Virus record (IMG/VR): IMGVR_UViG_3300030329_003706
Span: 1 to 63,202 of that record
Strand: one strand, 5' to 3'
Length of the DNA: 63,202 nucleotides
Origin: a virus
Lineage: Duplodnaviria; Caudoviricetes
The notes beneath the pieces were generated by a model. The model ran no database searches, was not told the DNA's origin, and saw nothing but the letters and a program-made list of their open reading frames with translations. Positions 9,969 to 46,739 of this stretch are shown piece by piece; the first letter of the stretch is position 1, and each line of letters begins with the position of its first letter. Made by a program: the position numbers and the translations under genes.

Positions 9969-10595
9969 TTAAGCTTCATATCCATATAATTCTATTAGCA
10001 ACTTACCTGCTGTGTAATCAGCATTTGTTGTAGCACCTAGAGTTAGATACAAGTATGAATCTGCCGCAGGAACGGCTGATAAAATAACAACACTACCTAG
10101 TGATGCGTCACCTGCATTAACCAATAAAGTTTCTGTCAAATCTGAGATAGCCCCATCTTCAACACCTGTTGCTTCAGTTGCAGAATGAATATTGATATCT
10201 GGGTCACCACCTGCAGGAGCTTCAAAACAAGTCATTCTGCCTGCAAGTATAGTTCCGTTTCTCGCGGCGGTTATCTGCCCAATGTGACAAGCATTAGATG
10301 TACCATCAACACCAATAATGTCGCCACTAGCTGTTGATCTTAGTCCTGTAAGGTCAATTAGGATACTTGTGGTAATAATACCACCTGACCTAAGAACCGA
10401 ACTTTTGTAAATAGTACCTGTACCACCTGTGATACCTGTACCTGCTTCTGTAGCCATTGTATTAGCATCAAGCGAAGTAAAGCCTGCAGATGAAATGGAC
10501 ATTTGTGTTGTTTCTGCACCTGTAGATGTGGCTGTAGCTATTGAAGAGTAGCCTCCCTCAGATCGTAAAGTGCCTTTAAATGTAGTATTAGCCAT
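9969..10595 (-). CDS. Virion structural protein (possible capsid fibre/decoration)
   Basis: MANTTFKG N-terminus; first gene after the capsid terminator; AGGAG RBS. Confidence 0.55.
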   Translation of the reverse strand: MANTTFKGTLRSEGGYSSIATATSTGAETTQMSISSAGFTSLDANTMATEAGTGITGGTGTIYKSSVLRSGGIITTSILIDLTGLRSTASGDIIGVDGTSNACHIGQITAARNGTILAGRMTCFEAPAGGDPDINIHSATEATGVEDGAISDLTETLLVNAGDASLGSVVILSAVPAADSYLYLTLGATTNADYTAGKLLIELYGYEA

Positions 10596-10663
10596 GTTTT
10601 ATCTCCTTGTCTTGGCTGTTGTCAATCACACCATGTGATTGTCAAGGTTATTAAACTGTACAT

Positions 10664-10715: not shown

Positions 10716-11624
10716 TTAAGCTCCAGGAGAACCAAACACACATCTTGGGTCAGAAACACCAAAACTATAACGCTCTCTAGCCTTATAGCGAACATTGCCT
10801 GTTTCAAAATCCCCTTCCATAGAGGTTTTGATAGCACTTCTTTCAAAATGCTTAAAACCATTTGGAGCATCTGTTTTGATAAAAAACGCATCAGTATCGG
10901 TTAAGAAGTGATTTACCACATAACCATCTGGTAGCATTCCCATGTTCTTAACAGCATTTACATCATTATCTGCTGTTCCAGATCTCAGGTTAGAAGCCAT
11001 CAATCTTTCTGCAACAAACTGTAATGCAGGTGGGATAATTAATTTCCTACCTTGTAATGCAATTTTCAAACCTCTTTCATCAATAAAAGCGGCGATATCG
11101 ATTAACGATTGCTCTAGTGATGTTTCATTAAGGTCTGCGGCTGTTGAAAGCTCGTTACGGAAAGTTCCTCCACCTACTGTTGGATGATCAGTCGCACAAA
11201 GCTCTTTACTATCGCCTATTGCGTAACTGCTGTCAAACGCATTGTTTAGTACAGAAGCCGCCTTGACTTGCTTAGTATTAGCCATTGATCTTGCTAATGC
11301 ACGAGTATAACGAGAGCTAAGTCTGTCATAGAGATTATCCTCTACAGCTTCCTCAGTAATCGCAAAAGCAAGTGCAATAGTTTCATGGGTATACCTTGCT
11401 GTAAAAGCTTCGTTTGCAGAGTCATATGCGACTGCCGCTCCCTCACCTTTCACTGGGGCTTGTCCAAAACCAGACAACATTACTTCCTCTTCAAACGCTC
11501 TGTCTGAAGATTCGGTTTCAAAAATTTCGGCATGCTCATTGTCATACCTATCGTACTCCATTCCGAACAAGGCATTTAATCCTGGTTCTAATTCTTTAAG
11601 GAGTTGTGATCTACTTATAGCCAT
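10716..11624 (-). CDS. Major capsid protein
   Basis: MAISRSQLLKELEPGLNALFG...YKARERYSFG..DPR.VFGSPGA, a recognisable MCP family; strong GGAGG RBS; followed by a terminator. Confidence 0.9.
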   Translation of the reverse strand: MAISRSQLLKELEPGLNALFGMEYDRYDNEHAEIFETESSDRAFEEEVMLSGFGQAPVKGEGAAVAYDSANEAFTARYTHETIALAFAITEEAVEDNLYDRLSSRYTRALARSMANTKQVKAASVLNNAFDSSYAIGDSKELCATDHPTVGGGTFRNELSTAADLNETSLEQSLIDIAAFIDERGLKIALQGRKLIIPPALQFVAERLMASNLRSGTADNDVNAVKNMGMLPDGYVVNHFLTDTDAFFIKTDAPNGFKHFERSAIKTSMEGDFETGNVRYKARERYSFGVSDPRCVFGSPGA

Positions 11625-22380: not shown

Positions 22381-22484
22381 TCTGTCAAATCAAATCAAAT
22401 CCAGTCATTCTTCTTCTTTCATCATCTATCAGATAACATTCTAAGAGGACGATTGACGAAGATTGATGAACCGTTTTCCCTCCT

Positions 22485-23735: not shown

Positions 23736-24170
23736 TTATTTTCCTAGTACCCACTGATGATCACTTAAATCATCAACACTAATAACTGCTAACTTAGTGT
23801 ACTCTTTCATTGAGCCTTCTGGTATTTGGTAAAAATCAATTTCTATGTTTATTCCCTCAAGCCCTCCGTCTTGGGTAGGTACATAATACTCAAAGCTAAA
23901 CCAATGATCTAATTTAGCAGACTTGCTCCTTAACTCATTTAATCCCTGAATGAACGAAGCAGTGGTTGTCGCCTTTTCCGTATTATAACATTTTTTAGGA
24001 CCTCTAAGGTTTTGGCTTATGACTTCATCTACTGCACTAAAAGCGACTTTTTGAATAAGCTTTTCCTCAGGGTTAATTGTGTCCTTAGGTTTTGTATAAT
24101 AGGGCAGATTTGGATACATGTACTGTAACCATCCATCCCAAACATCAAAATGTTTTAAATCAACTTGCAT
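23736..24170 (-). CDS. Hypothetical early protein
   Basis: TAGAAAGGA RBS; promoter at 24211. Confidence 0.65.
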   Translation of the reverse strand: MQVDLKHFDVWDGWLQYMYPNLPYYTKPKDTINPEEKLIQKVAFSAVDEVISQNLRGPKKCYNTEKATTTASFIQGLNELRSKSAKLDHWFSFEYYVPTQDGGLEGINIEIDFYQIPEGSMKEYTKLAVISVDDLSDHQWVLGK

Positions 24171-24210
24171 AACACGATTCCTTTCTATGACTGTGTTTTG
24201 TTATACTTCA

Positions 24211-24883: not shown

Positions 24884-25040
24884 TTTTCGCGTAGACCCGA
24901 AAGTTACTGTCTAGATATTGAATTCTTGGTCATTGTTCCCTGCTAAGTTATTGTAGATATGGGGATACTGAGATATTGTATATTATCAATTCTTAAAAAA
25001 CAAATTTACTCTCATCCGTATTTCACTCCTATATAGCAAA
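24884..25040. repeat. Three-part cis element, copy 1
   Basis: TTTTCGCGTAGACCCGAAAGT, AGATATTGTATAT and TATTTCACTCCTATATAGCAAA, all identical to 45021-45118. Confidence 0.9.
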
Positions 25041-25138
25041 CTGGTTATAGAGCCGTGTAAAGTGGTCAAAAATTTTTGGGCTACTGTGGGGTATTAAGGG
25101 GGGCTTGAGTTAGTCGAGTGGCGTCGGAAATGGGGCTT

Positions 25139-25180
25139 AAAAAAAGAGACCCCCTACCGTTTGGGTGTTCGGGTAGGGGG
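25139..25180 (-). terminator. Intrinsic terminator closing the early-gene run
   Basis: CCCCTACC...GGTAGGGG stem followed by a T-run on the - strand. Confidence 0.7.
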
Positions 25181-25216
25181 TGAAGTGGGAGGAATATTAT
25201 CATGAAGATAAACTAT

Positions 25217-27275: not shown

Positions 27276-27388
27276 GTGCTCTCCTTTCTAAAAAGCGTTT
27301 GTTGGTGTGAGGCGTAAGATTCGCTCGCAACTGATTCTCTTACTTTAATAATAGTACCTAGGACTGCGAGTATTAACCCCACTAATAA

Positions 27389-27432
27389 ATATTACTACAG
27401 CATTTGTCGTATGATAAGTCTTATTTGTTCTT
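27389..27432 (-). promoter_or_regulatory. Phage promoter TTATCA-N17-TAATAT
   Basis: GATAAGTCTTATTTGTTCT on the + strand. Confidence 0.7.
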
Positions 27433-30093: not shown

Positions 30094-30325
30094 TTGCGTA
30101 TTTGATCTAGCAAACTTGTCGCGGCTTCATTCCTGCCAATGTAAATATCATCTGTGCCGTCTGATGTTACCCAATCTTCACCATTTTCTTTAGCATCAAC
30201 AAACTCTTGACTGTCTTCTATTTCATTTTCAAGCCATTCTTTGACCTTGTTTAGCACCCTCCCCTCGTGTGAAGGGAAGATGCTTTTTAACCATGAGGTT
30301 AATTGTTGAAAAGAAAAGCTCACTG

Positions 30326-30733
30326 TCAATACTCCGATGGCAGGAAGAATACTGTACGTTCTCCACTTTTCTGCATATAAAATTTCCATGTTCCAGGAAA
30401 AGCGTCAGTAAACTCGATTTCACGCTCAAAAAGGGTAGGACTAGTAGCATCGTTCCCATCACTGGCAGTGATTATTGCTTTTTTGTCCTTTACATAAAGA
30501 AACACAACTAAGAAATCATGTTTTTCCATTAGTGGAGCAATTTCGGTAGCGACTATGTCGTTAAACCAATAGGCTCCCCCACTACACTTTTCAAAGAAGT
30601 AACGTGTCCCATCAGTGTAGCAATAGTTATGGACTAAGGGGTGTTTGAAATATTGACTTGTTCCAGTAAACATGTTCAAATTTTGCATAAACTCGTTCAC
30701 CTTAGGATCCTGAAGATTAATTACGTTGTTCAT
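30326..30733 (-). CDS. Conserved hypothetical protein (DUF6876-like)
   Basis: FTGTSQYFKH...YTDG...GAYWF.D...DGND...IEFTD.FP...LPSEY. Confidence 0.65.
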   Translation of the reverse strand: MNNVINLQDPKVNEFMQNLNMFTGTSQYFKHPLVHNYCYTDGTRYFFEKCSGGAYWFNDIVATEIAPLMEKHDFLVVFLYVKDKKAIITASDGNDATSPTLFEREIEFTDAFPGTWKFYMQKSGERTVFFLPSEY

Positions 30734-30765
30734 TTATTCCTCCTTTCTATAAGGAATTAAGTTAA

Positions 30766-31135
30766 AAAACAAAGAGCAGAGGCAAAAATGTTTAGTGGTA
30801 TAGAAAAACATTGTGAAAATAACACCTCTGCTCCAACAGATTTGGGTAGAACTTTTCAAGCTAAACGCAAACTCAACCAGAAAGGAATGTTCTACCCAAG
30901 CCTAGTATAAGAATAACAAATAAAAGCATCGTTGATAAGTCTTATTTGTTCTTATTTATTCCGCTAAAAAGAGGGGAGCAAAAGTAGAAAGGAATGTTAA
31001 AACTATGCAAATTAACAGATTTGCTCCCCAAGTGAGCAGTAATTGGAGATTAAAAGCCCTCAAAGTTTAAGAAAGCTACTTTCGTGTCCACCAACGAAAA
31101 ACTCTTCCTTTAACTAACCGTGCTTTTAATTCACA
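30766..31135 (-). ncRNA. Putative small-RNA cassette of large-loop hairpins
   Basis: No ORF. Stems at 30774-30833, 30842-30899, 30973-31029 and about 31049-31130, lying directly downstream of promoters 30910 and 31142. Confidence 0.55.
30910..30960 (-). promoter_or_regulatory. Phage promoter TTATCA-N17-TATTCT
   Basis: GATAAGTCTTATTTGTTCTTATTTATT on the + strand. Confidence 0.7.
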
Positions 31136-31141
31136 CTATAA

Positions 31142-31191
31142 ATAATACACTATTTTTTATCTATGATAAGTCTTATTTGCTCTTATTTATT
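31142..31191 (-). promoter_or_regulatory. Phage promoter TTATCA-N16-TATTAT
   Basis: GATAAGTCTTATTTGCTCTTATTTATT on the + strand. Confidence 0.7.
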
Positions 31192-31389
31192 CTTCCAAGT
31201 AGAACCTATTAAGAATCCACACTCTGCACAAGAAATACCTCCTTCTTGTTTGGGCTTTTCTTCCTCTGTCACAAGGTGAAAAACATTACTCCCACAAAGA
31301 GAACACATTAAAACTCTCACTTGTTTTTCTTCTACGGTAGGTTTAGTCTCTCTCCTGAAGGGGATTACATTACTTTTTTGCTTTTCCAT
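31183..31389 (-). CDS. Small Zn-ribbon protein
   Basis: CSLCG...CAECG. Confidence 0.6.
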   Translation of the reverse strand: MEKQKSNVIPFRRETKPTVEEKQVRVLMCSLCGSNVFHLVTEEEKPKQEGGISCAECGFLIGSTWKNK

Positions 31390-31433
31390 ATCTGACCTTT
31401 TTATTGCCTGTAATAATACACCATATTAAGCAA

Positions 31434-31646
31434 TTAGCTCGTTGACTTTTCCTTTTTGTTCCTTTTTTGTTGTTTTTTGCCCTTATTATTGAATAAATCA
31501 GGAGAAATCACCGAGTTTTTCGCTTCTTTTTGCATTTCTTTCCATGCTTTTAACACTTCTGGCTTGAGAAATCGTACATGTTTGACCCTTTTATCAGGTT
31601 CTATTTTTTTCAACGCAAATTGTTCTTCCAGTGAGGTTTTTGTCAT
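31434..31646 (-). CDS. Hypothetical basic protein
   Basis: AAGGA RBS. Confidence 0.45.
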   Translation of the reverse strand: MTKTSLEEQFALKKIEPDKRVKHVRFLKPEVLKAWKEMQKEAKNSVISPDLFNNKGKKQQKRNKKEKSTS

Positions 31647-31658
31647 TTTATTTCCTTT

Positions 31659-31907
31659 TCAGTTCATTACAAATTTAGTATAGCAGTCTTTACAATAGCT
31701 TGATGTGGGTATGGCTACTTCTCCACATTCACATTTAAGAGCTCCGTTTAACAACACACGGTGACAAGCACCACAATAGACATCAGTTTTATGATCATCC
31801 TCATAAATTCTGCCTCTTGTTTGTTCTCCACAATAATCACAACTTATAAAGGTTTTCCAATGTCGTTTGTACCGTAGAGGGTTCTTTATTTTTGAGGGTA
31901 ATTGCAT
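31659..31907 (-). CDS. Small Zn-finger protein
   Basis: CDYC, CGAC, CEC and CKDC motifs; AGGAG RBS. Confidence 0.6.
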   Translation of the reverse strand: MQLPSKIKNPLRYKRHWKTFISCDYCGEQTRGRIYEDDHKTDVYCGACHRVLLNGALKCECGEVAIPTSSYCKDCYTKFVMN

Positions 31908-36582: not shown

Positions 36583-37677
36583 TTAAATACGCCCCTCAAA
36601 AAAGCTTAAATACTGTTTTCCTATAACTTTTGGGCTGTGTAGAGCTAATGCCTTGCTACCGTTCTCTCTATAAAAAGATAAAGGCGTTGAAGTAGAAGAG
36701 TACTGTGTTCCCATCACTCCTGCGTTAGATGCTACTCCCATACTCTTTCTGGGTATAGAATCGTTGGGGGAATCTATACTGTTTATAAGTTCAGCTAATT
36801 CTTCTGCTGTGCTTACGACTAAACAATTGATATCTGGCTTCATATCGTCTGGCTCATCCAGTAACCACTTAGAATGAATAATAGGAATACATCCTGCGTT
36901 CCATGCTTCAAGCCAAGTGTACTGTGTTCCCCCTCCATCGCCTACTATTTGGGTCATATCTACATTAAAGATATATTTTTTCATAAGGTTAAACGCATGA
37001 TCATTTTCTCTTGGGTAGTGAGCCTTAGACTGTACCCATTCAGGATACTTAGGCACTATCTTAAAGCGAGTGTATATTCTGTTTTCAAATCCCCTTATGT
37101 TTATTTTCTTGTTATCTGGTAATAAACGGTTAGCATCAAGCAAAACTTCTGTGTGCTTATCAAAATCTATTCTAGAAGTACTGATAGCAATTCCTCCACG
37201 AGTGCTTATATTGTTTGGGGTTTGAGAAGTAAAGGGGGAGTAGGGGTGTCTTATGAAAGTAGAACCCTTTAATGTCCTTGCCCCAATTTGTCTTATACTG
37301 ATACACCTATTGGGATCTAAGTTTTCAGGCAAGTTTTTCAACTCAGTAGGATCATGCACCACTATGAAAGCACCGTTGTCATATAGCTGTTGTGTTTGTT
37401 CCTTGAACTGTTTGGCTCCTGCGACAACAAGCTTAATCTCTGATCGCATAGAATTACTTGAAAAGTTACCATTGTATTTGTTAAAAACATCATCCAAAGA
37501 AATGTTTTGGTACTTTTTCCCATACCCAAAATCTCTTTGAAACTTTTCTGATTTTGGACGAACCTTGTAAAGATAAGGGGTAATCCCCACTTCTTTTAGT
37601 GCGTCCATAAGGTGACTGGTATAAGTTACCCAACCTCCATAGGGATTGGGACTTAAATAAAATAAATTTGCTCTCAT
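36583..37677 (-). CDS. GT-B fold glycosyltransferase
   Basis: N-terminal YGGWVTY, HDPTE, SRIDFDKH and GGGTQYTWLEAWNAGCIPI (GT4-like E.x.G motif). Confidence 0.75.
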   Translation of the reverse strand: MRANLFYLSPNPYGGWVTYTSHLMDALKEVGITPYLYKVRPKSEKFQRDFGYGKKYQNISLDDVFNKYNGNFSSNSMRSEIKLVVAGAKQFKEQTQQLYDNGAFIVVHDPTELKNLPENLDPNRCISIRQIGARTLKGSTFIRHPYSPFTSQTPNNISTRGGIAISTSRIDFDKHTEVLLDANRLLPDNKKINIRGFENRIYTRFKIVPKYPEWVQSKAHYPRENDHAFNLMKKYIFNVDMTQIVGDGGGTQYTWLEAWNAGCIPIIHSKWLLDEPDDMKPDINCLVVSTAEELAELINSIDSPNDSIPRKSMGVASNAGVMGTQYSSTSTPLSFYRENGSKALALHSPKVIGKQYLSFFEGRI

Positions 37678-38579
37678 TCTATTTTTCCTTTTATTGAATC
37701 TGTAAATGTTTGTTTGTACAAGCTACGAGGCTTACCCTCACCTAGCCTAACTCTTTCGTACTTGTCCCACTCACATAGGCTATGTTCAATAGTACGCATA
37801 TCTATGTCTGATTCAGAACAAATTAATTGACCATACTCTCGCTTGTATTGAAGCAAGAACCACATTTCTTCATTAGCTTGTTTTTGGCTTATCGTTTTGT
37901 TGAGGGGGCGTTCCCCAATCCTGTTAAGACCGCGAATTGCTCCAGGTCCTGCGTTTGCCCAAGTAAAACGGTCTTTTGGGCATGGTAACACAGATGTGTA
38001 GTTGAGGTCGGAAACGACCTCGTATGACATAAAACCTCCCCCTCCCCACCCTTTATAGGAAGCCATCGCATTGTGGAGACTTTGCAAGGAATTTGTTTGG
38101 GACGCCACAATAGCAAGTTTTTCCTTGTCTCGCCAGATTGGGGATAAGAAGTGGTCAACTACTACCTCCGATTTCCTAAGTTTAAGACCCTGATTCGTAA
38201 TTATATACGCTCCAGTAAATGTCCGTAAACCCTTATCTAATCTTCTTTCTATGATTTCTTTGGTGCGAGTAGGATCCCACTCTGTTACCCACCCATGTTC
38301 CTCAGCAAACTCTATAGTACCCACCATTCTAAACAAACAGCAATTAAATATTATTTCGCCATGATCACGATTATGGTTTAAATCAGTCCAGTTCCTACGC
38401 ATCCAAACGGTTACTCTATCGTTTTCCCTAAATGGATTAGTGAACTTATATTTTTGTAATATAGGGTCAGTAGTCCAAGGAGGAGGTTTACCCTCTAGCC
38501 TACGTTGATATATACGATGCCGTTCTGTTATCCAATCATATAACAAACAGGCATTTAATCTAGCTTCTTTTTCAAACAT
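37674..38579 (-). CDS. aGPT-Pplase1 / 5-hmdU DNA kinase-like protein
   Basis: ERHRIY..R..G.PPPWT.DPILQKYKFTN.FRE.DRVT, FTGAY, GFMSYEVVSD, GPGAIRGL and IEHSLCEWDKY motifs. Confidence 0.85.
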   Translation of the reverse strand: MFEKEARLNACLLYDWITERHRIYQRRLEGKPPPWTTDPILQKYKFTNPFRENDRVTVWMRRNWTDLNHNRDHGEIIFNCCLFRMVGTIEFAEEHGWVTEWDPTRTKEIIERRLDKGLRTFTGAYIITNQGLKLRKSEVVVDHFLSPIWRDKEKLAIVASQTNSLQSLHNAMASYKGWGGGGFMSYEVVSDLNYTSVLPCPKDRFTWANAGPGAIRGLNRIGERPLNKTISQKQANEEMWFLLQYKREYGQLICSESDIDMRTIEHSLCEWDKYERVRLGEGKPRSLYKQTFTDSIKGKIE

Positions 38580-38601: not shown

Positions 38602-38632
38602 GTGTGGCTACATTGTAATATAGTAGCCACAC
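38602..38632 (-). terminator. Hairpin between the DUF932 gene and the modification operon
   Basis: GTGTGGCTAC...GTAGCCACAC; no clear T-run, so it may be a processing or stability hairpin. Confidence 0.5.
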
Positions 38633-38651
38633 TAGGACAATAATTACTTTA

Positions 38652-45299: not shown

Positions 45300-46739
45300 A
45301 TGCGATACAAATTTAAACATAAGCCGTATGAGCATCAGCTCACGGCATTAGAAAAATCCTGGGATAAGGAATATTTTGCTTATTTTATGGACATGGGTAC
45401 AGGTAAGTCTAAAGTTCTTATAGACAACATATCCATGCTCTACGATAAAGGAAATATTTCTGCATCTCTTATAATCGCCCCAAAGGGTGTGTATAAAAAC
45501 TGGGAACGCAAAGAATTACCCACTCATCTACCAGACCATATAAAAGCGAATATTGTTTCCTGGTCTCCAGAAAAAACTAAAAAGAAAACAGAAGAATTAA
45601 AAACCTTATTACAGGTTGGTGAAGACTTACAAATATTTCTTATGAACGTTGAAGCACTAAGCACTAAAAGAGGTGTAGACATAGCAGGGAATTTCTTACT
45701 GCATCACAGGTGCTTATTAGCTGTAGATGAAAGTACAACTATAAAAAGCAAGTCAGCTAGAAGAACAAAAAACCTAATAAAATTAGGTAAACAGGCTCCA
45801 TATAGGAGGATACTTACAGGATCTCCTGTTACTAAATCACCTTTAGATTTATTTACACAGTGTGAGTTTTTAGAAAATTATGTGCTGAAACAAGGAAGTT
45901 ATTGGACATTTCAAAACAGGTATGCTAAAATGGTTCGTAGAACTATGGGAGCTCATAGTTTCAACCAAATAACAGGATACCAAAATCTTGATGAACTTAA
46001 TGGTATCATTGAACCTTTCAGCTTTCGTGTTCGTAAAGAAGATTGTTTAGATTTACCTGATAAGGTGTACACCAAGCGTACTGTAGAGTTAACAGATGAA
46101 CAGAAAAAACTTTATGAACAAATGCGTCGTACAGCTCTTGCTGTTATAGAAAATGAAGGTATGGTTACTGCTCCAACAGTATTGACACAATTACTAAGGC
46201 TTCAACAAGTATGTTCGGGGTTTGCTAAGTTAGAAGATGGCAGGGTGATAACTGTTAAAACTAACAAACTTCAAGAACTAATGGACGCTTTGGAGGAAGT
46301 CGATGGGAAAGTTATTATTTGGGCAAACTTTACCCATGATTTAATTAGCATAAAATCAACATTAGATAAAGTTTATGGGGAGGGCTGTGCAGAGTTGTTT
46401 TATGGTGAAACTCCTGCTAATGAACGACAATTAATTGTTGAACGTTTTCAAGACCCTAATAGTTCACTTAGGTTTTTTGTAGGACAACCACGCACAGGAG
46501 GCTATGGTCTAACTCTTACAGAAGCGAAAACAGTTATATACTATAGCAATGGATATGATTTAGAGGTTAGACTACAAAGTGAGGATAGAGCTCATAGAAT
46601 AGGACAAACAAATAAAGTAACCTATATAGACATTATCGCTGAAAAAACAGTTGATGAAAAGATAATCAAGGCGTTAAGAAATAAAATTGATATAAGTAGT
46701 AGTGTATTGGCAGAGGGACATAGGGAATGGATAATATAA
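45300..46739 (+). CDS. SNF2-family helicase
   Basis: MDMGTGKS, VDEST, LTGSP, GYGLTL and QSEDRAHRIGQ motifs. Confidence 0.93.
   Translation: MRYKFKHKPYEHQLTALEKSWDKEYFAYFMDMGTGKSKVLIDNISMLYDKGNISASLIIAPKGVYKNWERKELPTHLPDHIKANIVSWSPEKTKKKTEELKTLLQVGEDLQIFLMNVEALSTKRGVDIAGNFLLHHRCLLAVDESTTIKSKSARRTKNLIKLGKQAPYRRILTGSPVTKSPLDLFTQCEFLENYVLKQGSYWTFQNRYAKMVRRTMGAHSFNQITGYQNLDELNGIIEPFSFRVRKEDCLDLPDKVYTKRTVELTDEQKKLYEQMRRTALAVIENEGMVTAPTVLTQLLRLQQVCSGFAKLEDGRVITVKTNKLQELMDALEEVDGKVIIWANFTHDLISIKSTLDKVYGEGCAELFYGETPANERQLIVERFQDPNSSLRFFVGQPRTGGYGLTLTEAKTVIYYSNGYDLEVRLQSEDRAHRIGQTNKVTYIDIIAEKTVDEKIIKALRNKIDISSSVLAEGHREWII

Follow-up and report, generated by a model that had tools for sequence, protein, structure and literature searches.

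What does a marine phage do with 449 nucleotides (nt) that hold promoters and hairpins between two genes? The question is raised by positions 30734-31182 of the virus record IMGVR_UViG_3300030329_003706, which was analysed over its full length of 63,202 nt (the window). The record is complete, has a G+C content of 38.5% and belongs to a marine HTVC023P-like phage, whose family A DNA polymerase is 51-56% identical to those of phage 023Pt_psg01, phage DSL-LC04 and the Pelagibacter phages HTVC023P and HTVC027P. All of its 60-odd called genes lie on the minus strand except one, the helicase at 45300-46739. The gap is AT-rich and separates a small zinc-finger gene from a DUF6876 gene, at the point where the replication module (primase, helicases, polymerase, HD hydrolase) ends and a run of small genes begins. 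We tentatively read it, at a little under an even chance, as two tandem non-coding units on the minus strand, A and B, which run from promoter to terminator and carry an anti-Shine-Dalgarno motif that would lower translation initiation.

The units are set out by two promoters, P1 and P2 (Table 1). Both belong to a family of about eight convincing members, all on the minus strand, that combine a TTATCA -35 element with AAATAAGA boxes; the -35 element is followed by a 16-17-nt spacer and a TAnnnT -10 element. The 15-mer AAATAAGACTTATCA matches exactly at 31164-31178 and at 30933-30947 on the minus strand, so that the two family promoters firing into the hairpins, reported in a preliminary description made from the sequence alone, are both in place. 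With up to three mismatches the 15-mer has 16 matches, compared with 5.6 ± 2.4 in shuffled sequences. P1 overlaps the stop codon of the zinc-finger gene and is the positional orthologue of the single promoter found in this slot in relatives. P2 resembles it over 45 nt (82% identity; 28 of 29 core positions). Since P1 is orthologous to the lone promoter of the relatives and P2 is its duplicate, unit A is a non-coding cassette bracketed by direct promoter repeats. The putative starts lie a few bases ahead of hairpins H4 (P1) and H2 (P2), and the remaining family promoters drive genes through leaders of 20-50 nt. Beyond the promoters the two units align weakly; the 3' arms of H3 and H1 share TGCTC and a U-run.

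Table 1. Features of the gap, its flanking genes and the best candidate target, in window coordinates.
Feature	Position	Strand	Description
Zinc-finger gene	31183..31389	-	small, 68 amino acids; upstream of the slot; kept in relatives
Promoter P1	31159..31203	-	upstream AATAAATAAGA boxes; -35 TTATCA 31169-31164; -10 TATTAT 31147-31142; putative start ~31135
Hairpin H4	31049..31130	-	imperfect, 37-nt arms, 70% complementary; 5' end of unit A RNA; -26.3 kcal/mol, z -2.6
Hairpin H3	30973..31029	-	arms GGGGAGCAAA 30973-30982 / TTTGCTCCCC 31020-31029; 10-bp GC-rich stem (6 GC); 37-nt loop; -18.2 kcal/mol, z -4.6
13-mer AACATTCCTTTCT, H3-loop copy	30986..30998	-	unpaired in the minimum free energy (MFE) fold
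U-run TCTTTTT directly after H3	30966..30972	-	putative 3' end of unit A RNA (~170 nt) and of the upstream replication operon
Promoter P2	30910..30972	-	duplicate of P1; -35 TTATCA 30938-30933; -10 TATTCT 30915-30910; putative start ~30903
Hairpin H2	30842..30899	-	arms TTGGGTAGAAC 30842-30852 / GTTCTACCCAA 30889-30899; 11-bp stem; 36-nt loop; no U-run; -22.7 kcal/mol, z -3.6
13-mer AACATTCCTTTCT, H2 copy	30879..30891	-	last bases of the 5' arm and 5' side of the loop; partly paired in the MFE fold
Hairpin H1	30774..30833	-	arms GAGCAGAGG 30774-30782 / CCTCTGCTC 30825-30833; 9-bp perfect stem; 42-nt loop
U-run TTTGTTTTTT after H1	30764..30773	-	putative conditional 3' end of unit B RNA (~140 nt); read-through would give DUF6876 mRNA
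DUF6876 start region	30731..30755	-	AUUCCUU-AUAGAAAG-GAGGAAU hairpin, AGAAAG shown in the loop; AUG 30733-30731
DUF6876 gene	30326..30733	-	135 amino acids; PF21781, E 1.6e-24; served by unit B
Start region of gene 23736-24170	24160..24192	-	only minus-strand site with AGAAAGGAAT (complement of the 13-mer); best trans candidate, not above chance

H1, H2 and H3 lie where the preliminary description had placed its 9-11-bp stems, with loops of 36-42 nt. H4 was absent from it; here an SD-like AAAGGAAGAG is paired with GCUUUCUU, and a 14-codon TTG/GTG micro-ORF (ORF, open reading frame) that might be read from the sequence of this hairpin is unlikely. With G-U pairs included, the H1 stem reaches 11-12 bp (6 GC). 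The loop of H2, the extreme 5' end of unit B RNA, folds on into a nearly continuous helix of ~25 bp, and inner helices of 6-7 bp are predicted in the loops of H1 and H3. Across the genome, perfect stems of 9 bp or more around loops of 20-60 nt show no excess (12, compared with 10.9 ± 3.7 in shuffles); a cluster of three in 300 nt arose in only 2 of 200 block shuffles. The minus strand of a 396-nt stretch folds with z = -4.6, and H1, H2 and H3 singly with z = -3.6 to -4.6. Its fold energy is -104.6 kcal/mol vs -90.1 kcal/mol for the plus strand, the G-U pairs fit minus-strand RNA only, and the U-runs behind H1 and H3, which had been noticed before, are confined to the minus-strand side. The better fold, the G-U pairing and the one-sided U-runs mean that the structure of the gap makes sense as minus-strand RNA. 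A scan for tRNAs found none, and no part of the region matched an Rfam family at the gathering thresholds (best 23.8 bits against a threshold of 45, E at least 0.19).

This strand specificity bears on the idea of a DNA-level element, a replication origin or a protein-binding site, which we consider a very distant prospect. The primary origin of T7, where tandem promoters and inverted repeats lie beside replication genes, offers an analogue, and the gap is AT-rich, lies at the end of the replication module and has both tandem promoters and inverted repeats. It has no iterons, however, and pairing that depends on G-U in one strand, together with one-sided U-runs, points to RNA. GC skew is flat across the site, a measure that is uninformative here because the genes are all on one strand.

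The gap reads as non-coding. Neither strand of 30734-31182 has an ORF of more than 41 amino acids (aa), in keeping with the roughly 400 bp without an ORF described earlier. Three short frames could in principle encode small proteins: a plus-strand 21-aa ORF (31005-31070) behind TAGAAAGGAAT, a plus-strand 40-aa ORF (30788-30910) and a minus-strand 41-aa ORF with a TTG start (30859-30734), whose stop lies one base before the AUG of the DUF6876 gene. We hold this to be highly improbable. Sequences resembling a ribosome-binding site (RBS) precede both plus-strand ORFs, and in our reading of the alignments the minus-strand frame is open in L088, a metagenomic fragment from a close relative, despite a +1 and a -1 indel. 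However, an indel in the same fragment reduces the 40-aa ORF to 9 codons. No plus-strand promoter was called inside the gap, and the called genes, 60-odd in number, include a single plus-strand one. The 41-aa ORF starts at TTG without a Shine-Dalgarno sequence, and a block of 15 of its codons is frameshifted between the window and L088. Finally, tblastx of the gap against the relatives and the rest of the genome gave no significant coding relic (best E 0.027).

A GC-rich stem followed by a U-run, as in intrinsic terminators, is present at H3 and at H1. Genome-wide the minus strand has only four strong elements of this kind (7 or more pairs in a stem that adjoins a U-run), and these two are among them. 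H3 and P2 together form a terminator-then-promoter composite. We suggest that both units would be transcribed by host RNA polymerase of the sigma-70 type; a scan of 10 large proteins, two of them (1043 and 813 aa) without a family, showed no phage RNA polymerase. Unit A would run from P1 through H4 to H3 and its U-run, giving a free RNA of ~170 nt, and its terminator would also close the upstream replication operon. Unit B would run from P2 through H2 to H1 and its U-run, giving an RNA of ~140 nt when termination occurs at H1; transcription that continues past H1 would instead provide the DUF6876 mRNA with its structured leader.

In phage lambda, the PR'-tR' region yields the short 6S transcript unless Q antitermination overrides the terminator. 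The gap is similar in that a promoter is followed by a predicted terminator within ~200 nt, ahead of genes; unlike lambda, it has two tandem units, and no Q-like gene or qut-type site was identified in it. A closer match is found in virulent Pseudomonas phages (phiKZ, PAK_P3, YuA, LUZ19, LUZ24 and 14-1). There, according to PMC10914365, 42 terminators lie in 5' untranslated regions just after promoters, 34 of them giving a predominant RNA of <250 nt beside a read-through mRNA, and 29 non-coding RNA candidates, function unknown, were proposed. The shared anatomy comprises a terminator just after a promoter, a product of <250 nt without an ORF (here predicted at ~170 and ~140 nt) and a read-through mRNA. 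Whereas our evidence is sequence, the Pseudomonas-phage RNAs were mapped by ONT-cappable-seq and northern blot, and tandem duplicate units, large-loop hairpins and an anti-RBS motif set the present locus apart. Because the anatomy matches this documented kind, we read the gap as two tandem units to which an anti-Shine-Dalgarno motif has been added.

The motif is the 13-mer AACATTCCTTTCT, whose sharing by hairpins 2 and 3 had been recognized in the preliminary description. On the minus strand it occurs in 63 kb only at these two places, and it is identical in both although the flanks are otherwise only 52% alike. It complements the phage RBS module TAGAAAGGAG; UUCCUUUCU is present once per unit RNA, within a large-loop hairpin, and is the complement of the consensus module UAGAAAGGAG. 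The sequence TAGAAAGGA marks seven minus-strand gene starts. In H3, CAUUCCUUUCUACU on the 3' side of the loop is unpaired in the MFE fold. At the level of sequence, the complementarity of loop 3 to the RBS module is real. In many bacteria the 3' tail of 16S rRNA reads GAUCACCUCCUUUCU(A), as stated in PMC6288834, and because of this common tail the module UAGAAAGGAG(G) would be a full-length Shine-Dalgarno sequence for a host whose 16S rRNA ends in CCUCCUUUCU(A). The last 10 bases of the tail CUCCUUUCUA are copied at 9 of 10 positions by the H3 loop (UUCCUUUCUA) and at 8 of 10 by the H2 loop (UUCCUUUCUG); the tail used is the common bacterial one.

The heptamer CCTTTCT is the commonest of the 35 heptamers with three C and four T in sense-strand intergenic DNA of 80 loci from relatives. 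It occurs there 15 times in 8 distinct contexts, at 0.239 per kb in intergenic vs 0.037 per kb in coding DNA. One context is a leader of 105-125 nt ahead of a DUF6876 homologue in L035 and L053, where the motif adjoins the 3' arm of a hairpin with a 10-bp stem and a large loop; a terminator loop of L032 and L033 provides another. A strong terminator that closes the small-gene module (L032 9200-9330; window ~24971-25181) is followed by a TTTGATAATATACAATATCT-type element, and its loop is TCCCCTTTCTG in L032 and L033.

Pyrimidine-rich loops are presented to Shine-Dalgarno sequences by RsaE/RoxS and RNAIII of Firmicutes. The Cuckoo, CcsR and NfeR1 RNAs of Alphaproteobacteria have anti-Shine-Dalgarno loops, and Cuckoo/CcsR consist of two or more hairpins with CCUCCUCCC loops. 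The predicted RNAs of the gap resemble all of these in that they are short, close with a terminator and display an anti-Shine-Dalgarno-like motif in hairpin loops. They differ in the motif itself, UUCCUUUCU, which is the 3'-terminal part of the 16S tail, vs UCCC or CCUCCUCCC; indeed, no CCTCCTCCC of the Cuckoo/CcsR type was found on the minus strand of 30700-31450. They also differ in being phage-encoded, in having the RBS modules of the phage itself as the obvious partners and in lacking conservation within the family.

The preliminary description had gone further and proposed trans-acting antisense RNAs, with loop 3 resembling the complement of the start of gene 23736-24170. The resemblance is there: loop 3 can form 11 contiguous Watson-Crick pairs with the Shine-Dalgarno region UAGAAAGGAAU and 9-12 pairs over AUGCAAGUU(GAU), the second stretch comprising 9 bases with one G-U. 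Loop 3 could thus be a dedicated antisense RNA that covers the Shine-Dalgarno sequence and AUG of this gene and silences it. By duplex energy alone, the gene start ranks first among 119 candidate start regions (-26.3 kcal/mol; next -22.7) and second among ~6300 sliding windows, and it has the sole minus-strand copy of AGAAAGGAAT. The controls do not make it an outlier. When loop 3 was shuffled with the 11-mer kept, 40 of 300 shuffles reached -26.3 kcal/mol. When intramolecular structure was included by cofolding with unit A RNA, the gain was -11.8 kcal/mol, rank 65 of 2017 windows (mean -5.8, sd 2.9); the scan covered the window down to position 22422. Five other RBS-module sites (of the seven) ranked from 134 to ~1400 of 2017, mostly mid-field, and nothing stood out for unit B. 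The extension of the pairing over the start codon does not clearly exceed chance, and a dedicated target is in our view improbable. What stands of the earlier proposal is a complement of the RBS module in putatively non-coding RNA downstream of promoters; a dedicated target is not supported.

We therefore return to the reading of two units with a general anti-Shine-Dalgarno motif. Unit A would pair with module-bearing phage messages generally, and unit B would act in cis on the DUF6876 gene. For unit B, which lies directly ahead of that gene, working as a leader or attenuator is at least as economical as working in trans. The sequence itself shows the anatomy, the lack of a conserved ORF, the pairing specific to one strand and the scarcity of the motif; that the units are transcribed, terminate, pair and affect translation is inferred. 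The RBS of the DUF6876 gene is itself inside a 7-bp hairpin with AGAAAG in the loop.

A bolder form of this reading is that the phage makes two RNAs that mimic the 16S tail and compete with ribosomes for the module UAGAAAGGAG by loop-loop pairing, turning module-bearing genes down together. The strongest RBSs of the phage would then be a fixed module shown in small hairpin loops. We regard this as rather unlikely. If true, the enrichment of CCTTTCT would be a family trait, achieved each time through unrelated sequences, and the mimics would be an RNA parallel to the RegB nuclease of T4, an enzyme that cleaves early Shine-Dalgarno sequences. As a separate observation, MFE folds of 42-nt segments at 13 minus-strand AGAAAGG sites (e.g. 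30748, 29372, 23654, 22303, 27289 and 39698), made without a shuffle control, placed AGAAAG in the loop of a small hairpin at 10 of the 13. The 3' arm of these hairpins begins with the GGAG of the Shine-Dalgarno sequence, and the same is seen in L035, L018 and L021.

How the slot varies in nature was followed in the 80 loci, fetched by their polymerase (70-87% identity). Both flanking genes are present in 45; eight further loci were dropped from the slot comparison for reasons of start-finding. The slot is hypervariable, measuring 21-862 nt in 24 distinct versions. Its usual contents are a single family promoter, a leader of 20-50 nt, the module TCGTAGAAAGGAG and from none to three small protein genes. 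This variation is the natural ground for the main rival to our reading, namely that the architecture is that of an operon boundary or recombination cassette and nothing more: H3 and P2 would be a boundary composite, the duplicated promoters recombination scars of an inserted cassette, the RNAs by-products and the 13-mers relics of inverted RBS modules. P1 and P2 do flank unit A as direct repeats, the small genes of relatives follow a single promoter, the hairpins lack conservation, the H1 loop varies freely over half its length, no target stands out, and the H1 stem resembles short-loop leader hairpins of relatives such as L009. However, a relic origin explains neither why the 13-mers are identical within diverged flanks nor why CCTTTCT is the top intergenic heptamer of its composition, and the two promoters firing straight into terminators are likewise left unexplained. 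We consider this rival somewhat unlikely.

A precedent for such cassettes comes from T4-type phages, in which a repeated early promoter plus stem-loop (PeSL) bounds variable cassettes in a hyperplastic region and is a possible recombination point (PMC4122927). The H3-P2 layout and the hypervariable slot are like those described there. The phage group and the promoter sequence differ, no T4-type early promoter motif being present here; only the promoter is repeated genome-wide (about eight copies), P2 alone has a strong upstream stem-loop, and the cassette between the repeats is non-coding.

Closer relatives of the gap itself are few. The phage collection contained no DNA match to it. A search with the DUF6876 protein brought up nothing closely related in IMG/VR and, in the metagenome collection, a single contig that is identical (L087) and a single fragment of 1094 nt, L088. 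In contigs of four marine sequencing runs from four studies, examined over 30300-31700, the gap is identical where covered. L088 covers the window from 30863 downwards and is 94.8% identical in the DUF6876 gene, with 21 differences in 405 positions. The fragment ends inside H2, so H1 is the sole hairpin that can be compared. Upstream of and including the start codon, 14 differences fall in 133 nt: none touches the 18 stem positions of H1, and 9 fall among the 28 positions of the 3' half of its loop. Two substitutions that touch helices turn a G-U pair into A-U or G-C on the minus strand; in plus-strand RNA the window versions would be mismatches. The inner helix of the H1 loop is not conserved. 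Because the changes spare the stem and cluster in the loop half, and because the inner helix is not kept, H1 is more in keeping with a structural element, a terminator being the most likely, than with a loop that carries a seed.

Several points weigh against the two-unit reading with its anti-Shine-Dalgarno motif. Intrinsic terminators have short loops (~3-8 nt), and those of H3 and H1 measure 37 and 42 nt; a consensus terminator scan called neither hairpin because of these long loops. The motif is partly buried in H2, and the MFE folds show no pairing of the DUF6876 RBS with the H2 copy. The hairpins were found in none of the 80 loci, in which blastn with the gap returned the promoter box only, and stem-pattern scans of IMG/VR gave 1, 1 and 13 unrelated matches, none of them beside homologues of the zinc-finger or DUF6876 genes. 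A family-wide rule that long-loop hairpins carry anti-Shine-Dalgarno motifs was rejected, as 3 of 53 do and two of these are H2 and H3 (intergenic hairpins with perfect stems of at least 8 bp, scored for an anti-Shine-Dalgarno pentamer or hexamer, so that hairpins with G-U pairs, such as those of L018 and L035, do not count). In L088, fewer than one change in the H1 stem would be expected by chance, half of the H1 loop is free to vary, and the leader outside the variable loop half (5 of 105 positions differ) is no better kept than the coding sequence (21 of 405). No RNA run is listed among the sequencing runs that contain the sequence. Lastly, with one promoter type for the small RNAs and their supposed targets alike, nothing points to a temporal switch.

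This phage is not alone in having long structured leaders. In L035 and L053 a 10-bp stem surrounds a variable inner hairpin together with CCUUUACCUUUC, which is unpaired and lies on the 3' side; the promoter of L018 is followed at once by a 16-bp stem, whose CU-rich loop measures 23 nt, and a U-run; and in L013 (10141-10330) and L021 (4521-4680) leaders of 129-164 nt that end in a U-run follow a family promoter. The latter two contain two strong hairpins (z = -5.2 in L021) and close with UGCUUUAUUUU immediately ahead of the RBS; compared with L021, L013 has one hairpin loop exchanged and one stem-loop added. In the window, the family promoter at 27412 is followed by a leader of 101 nt (27290-27400, minus strand) with 6-bp stems, 19-38-nt loops and a T-run before the RBS, the third long leader of the genome.

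Other candidate RNA elements came to light elsewhere. A hairpin at 38607-38645 (minus strand) lies directly upstream of the RBS CATAGAAAGGGAG of gene 37674-38579 and is kept in many relatives, with counterparts at L005 1534, L009 1652, L012 1480, L017 1520, L018 1637, L025 1931 and L029 1679. Its stem varies and stays self-complementary (CACTG/CAGTG, TAGTG/CACTA, CATGG/CCATG; GTGTGGCTAC/GTAGCCACAC in the window) behind a fixed TTGTC. It looks like a conserved RNA element between two genes of the replication module. In L060 (11290-11360, also L061, L081 and L082) a conserved non-coding stretch after a stop codon contains AACCTTTCTGGGCG and then GGGTTCGACCTCGTCC, which recalls a tRNA T-arm. An Rfam Mu-gpT-DE RNA was recognized at 10593-10647 of the window (minus strand; 58.5 bits, threshold 49), close downstream of the 302-aa gene 10716-11624.

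How the abundant, uncultured marine relatives of HTVC023P regulate their genes is essentially undescribed. In a comparative paper on the group (PMC9599517), the terms promoter, terminator, intergenic, hairpin, noncoding and small RNA do not occur, and a literature search on HTVC023P, which was not exhaustive, found the promoters, terminators and small RNAs of the phage group undescribed. If the two units of the gap do make tail-mimicking RNAs, they would constitute a compact, portable throttle on the strongest translation signals of the phage itself, and would place a self-directed class beside the few phage small RNAs that have been characterized. If they are boundary cassettes only, the promoter family would mark the places at which a hypervariable gene slot recombines, in the manner of the PeSLs of T4-type phages.

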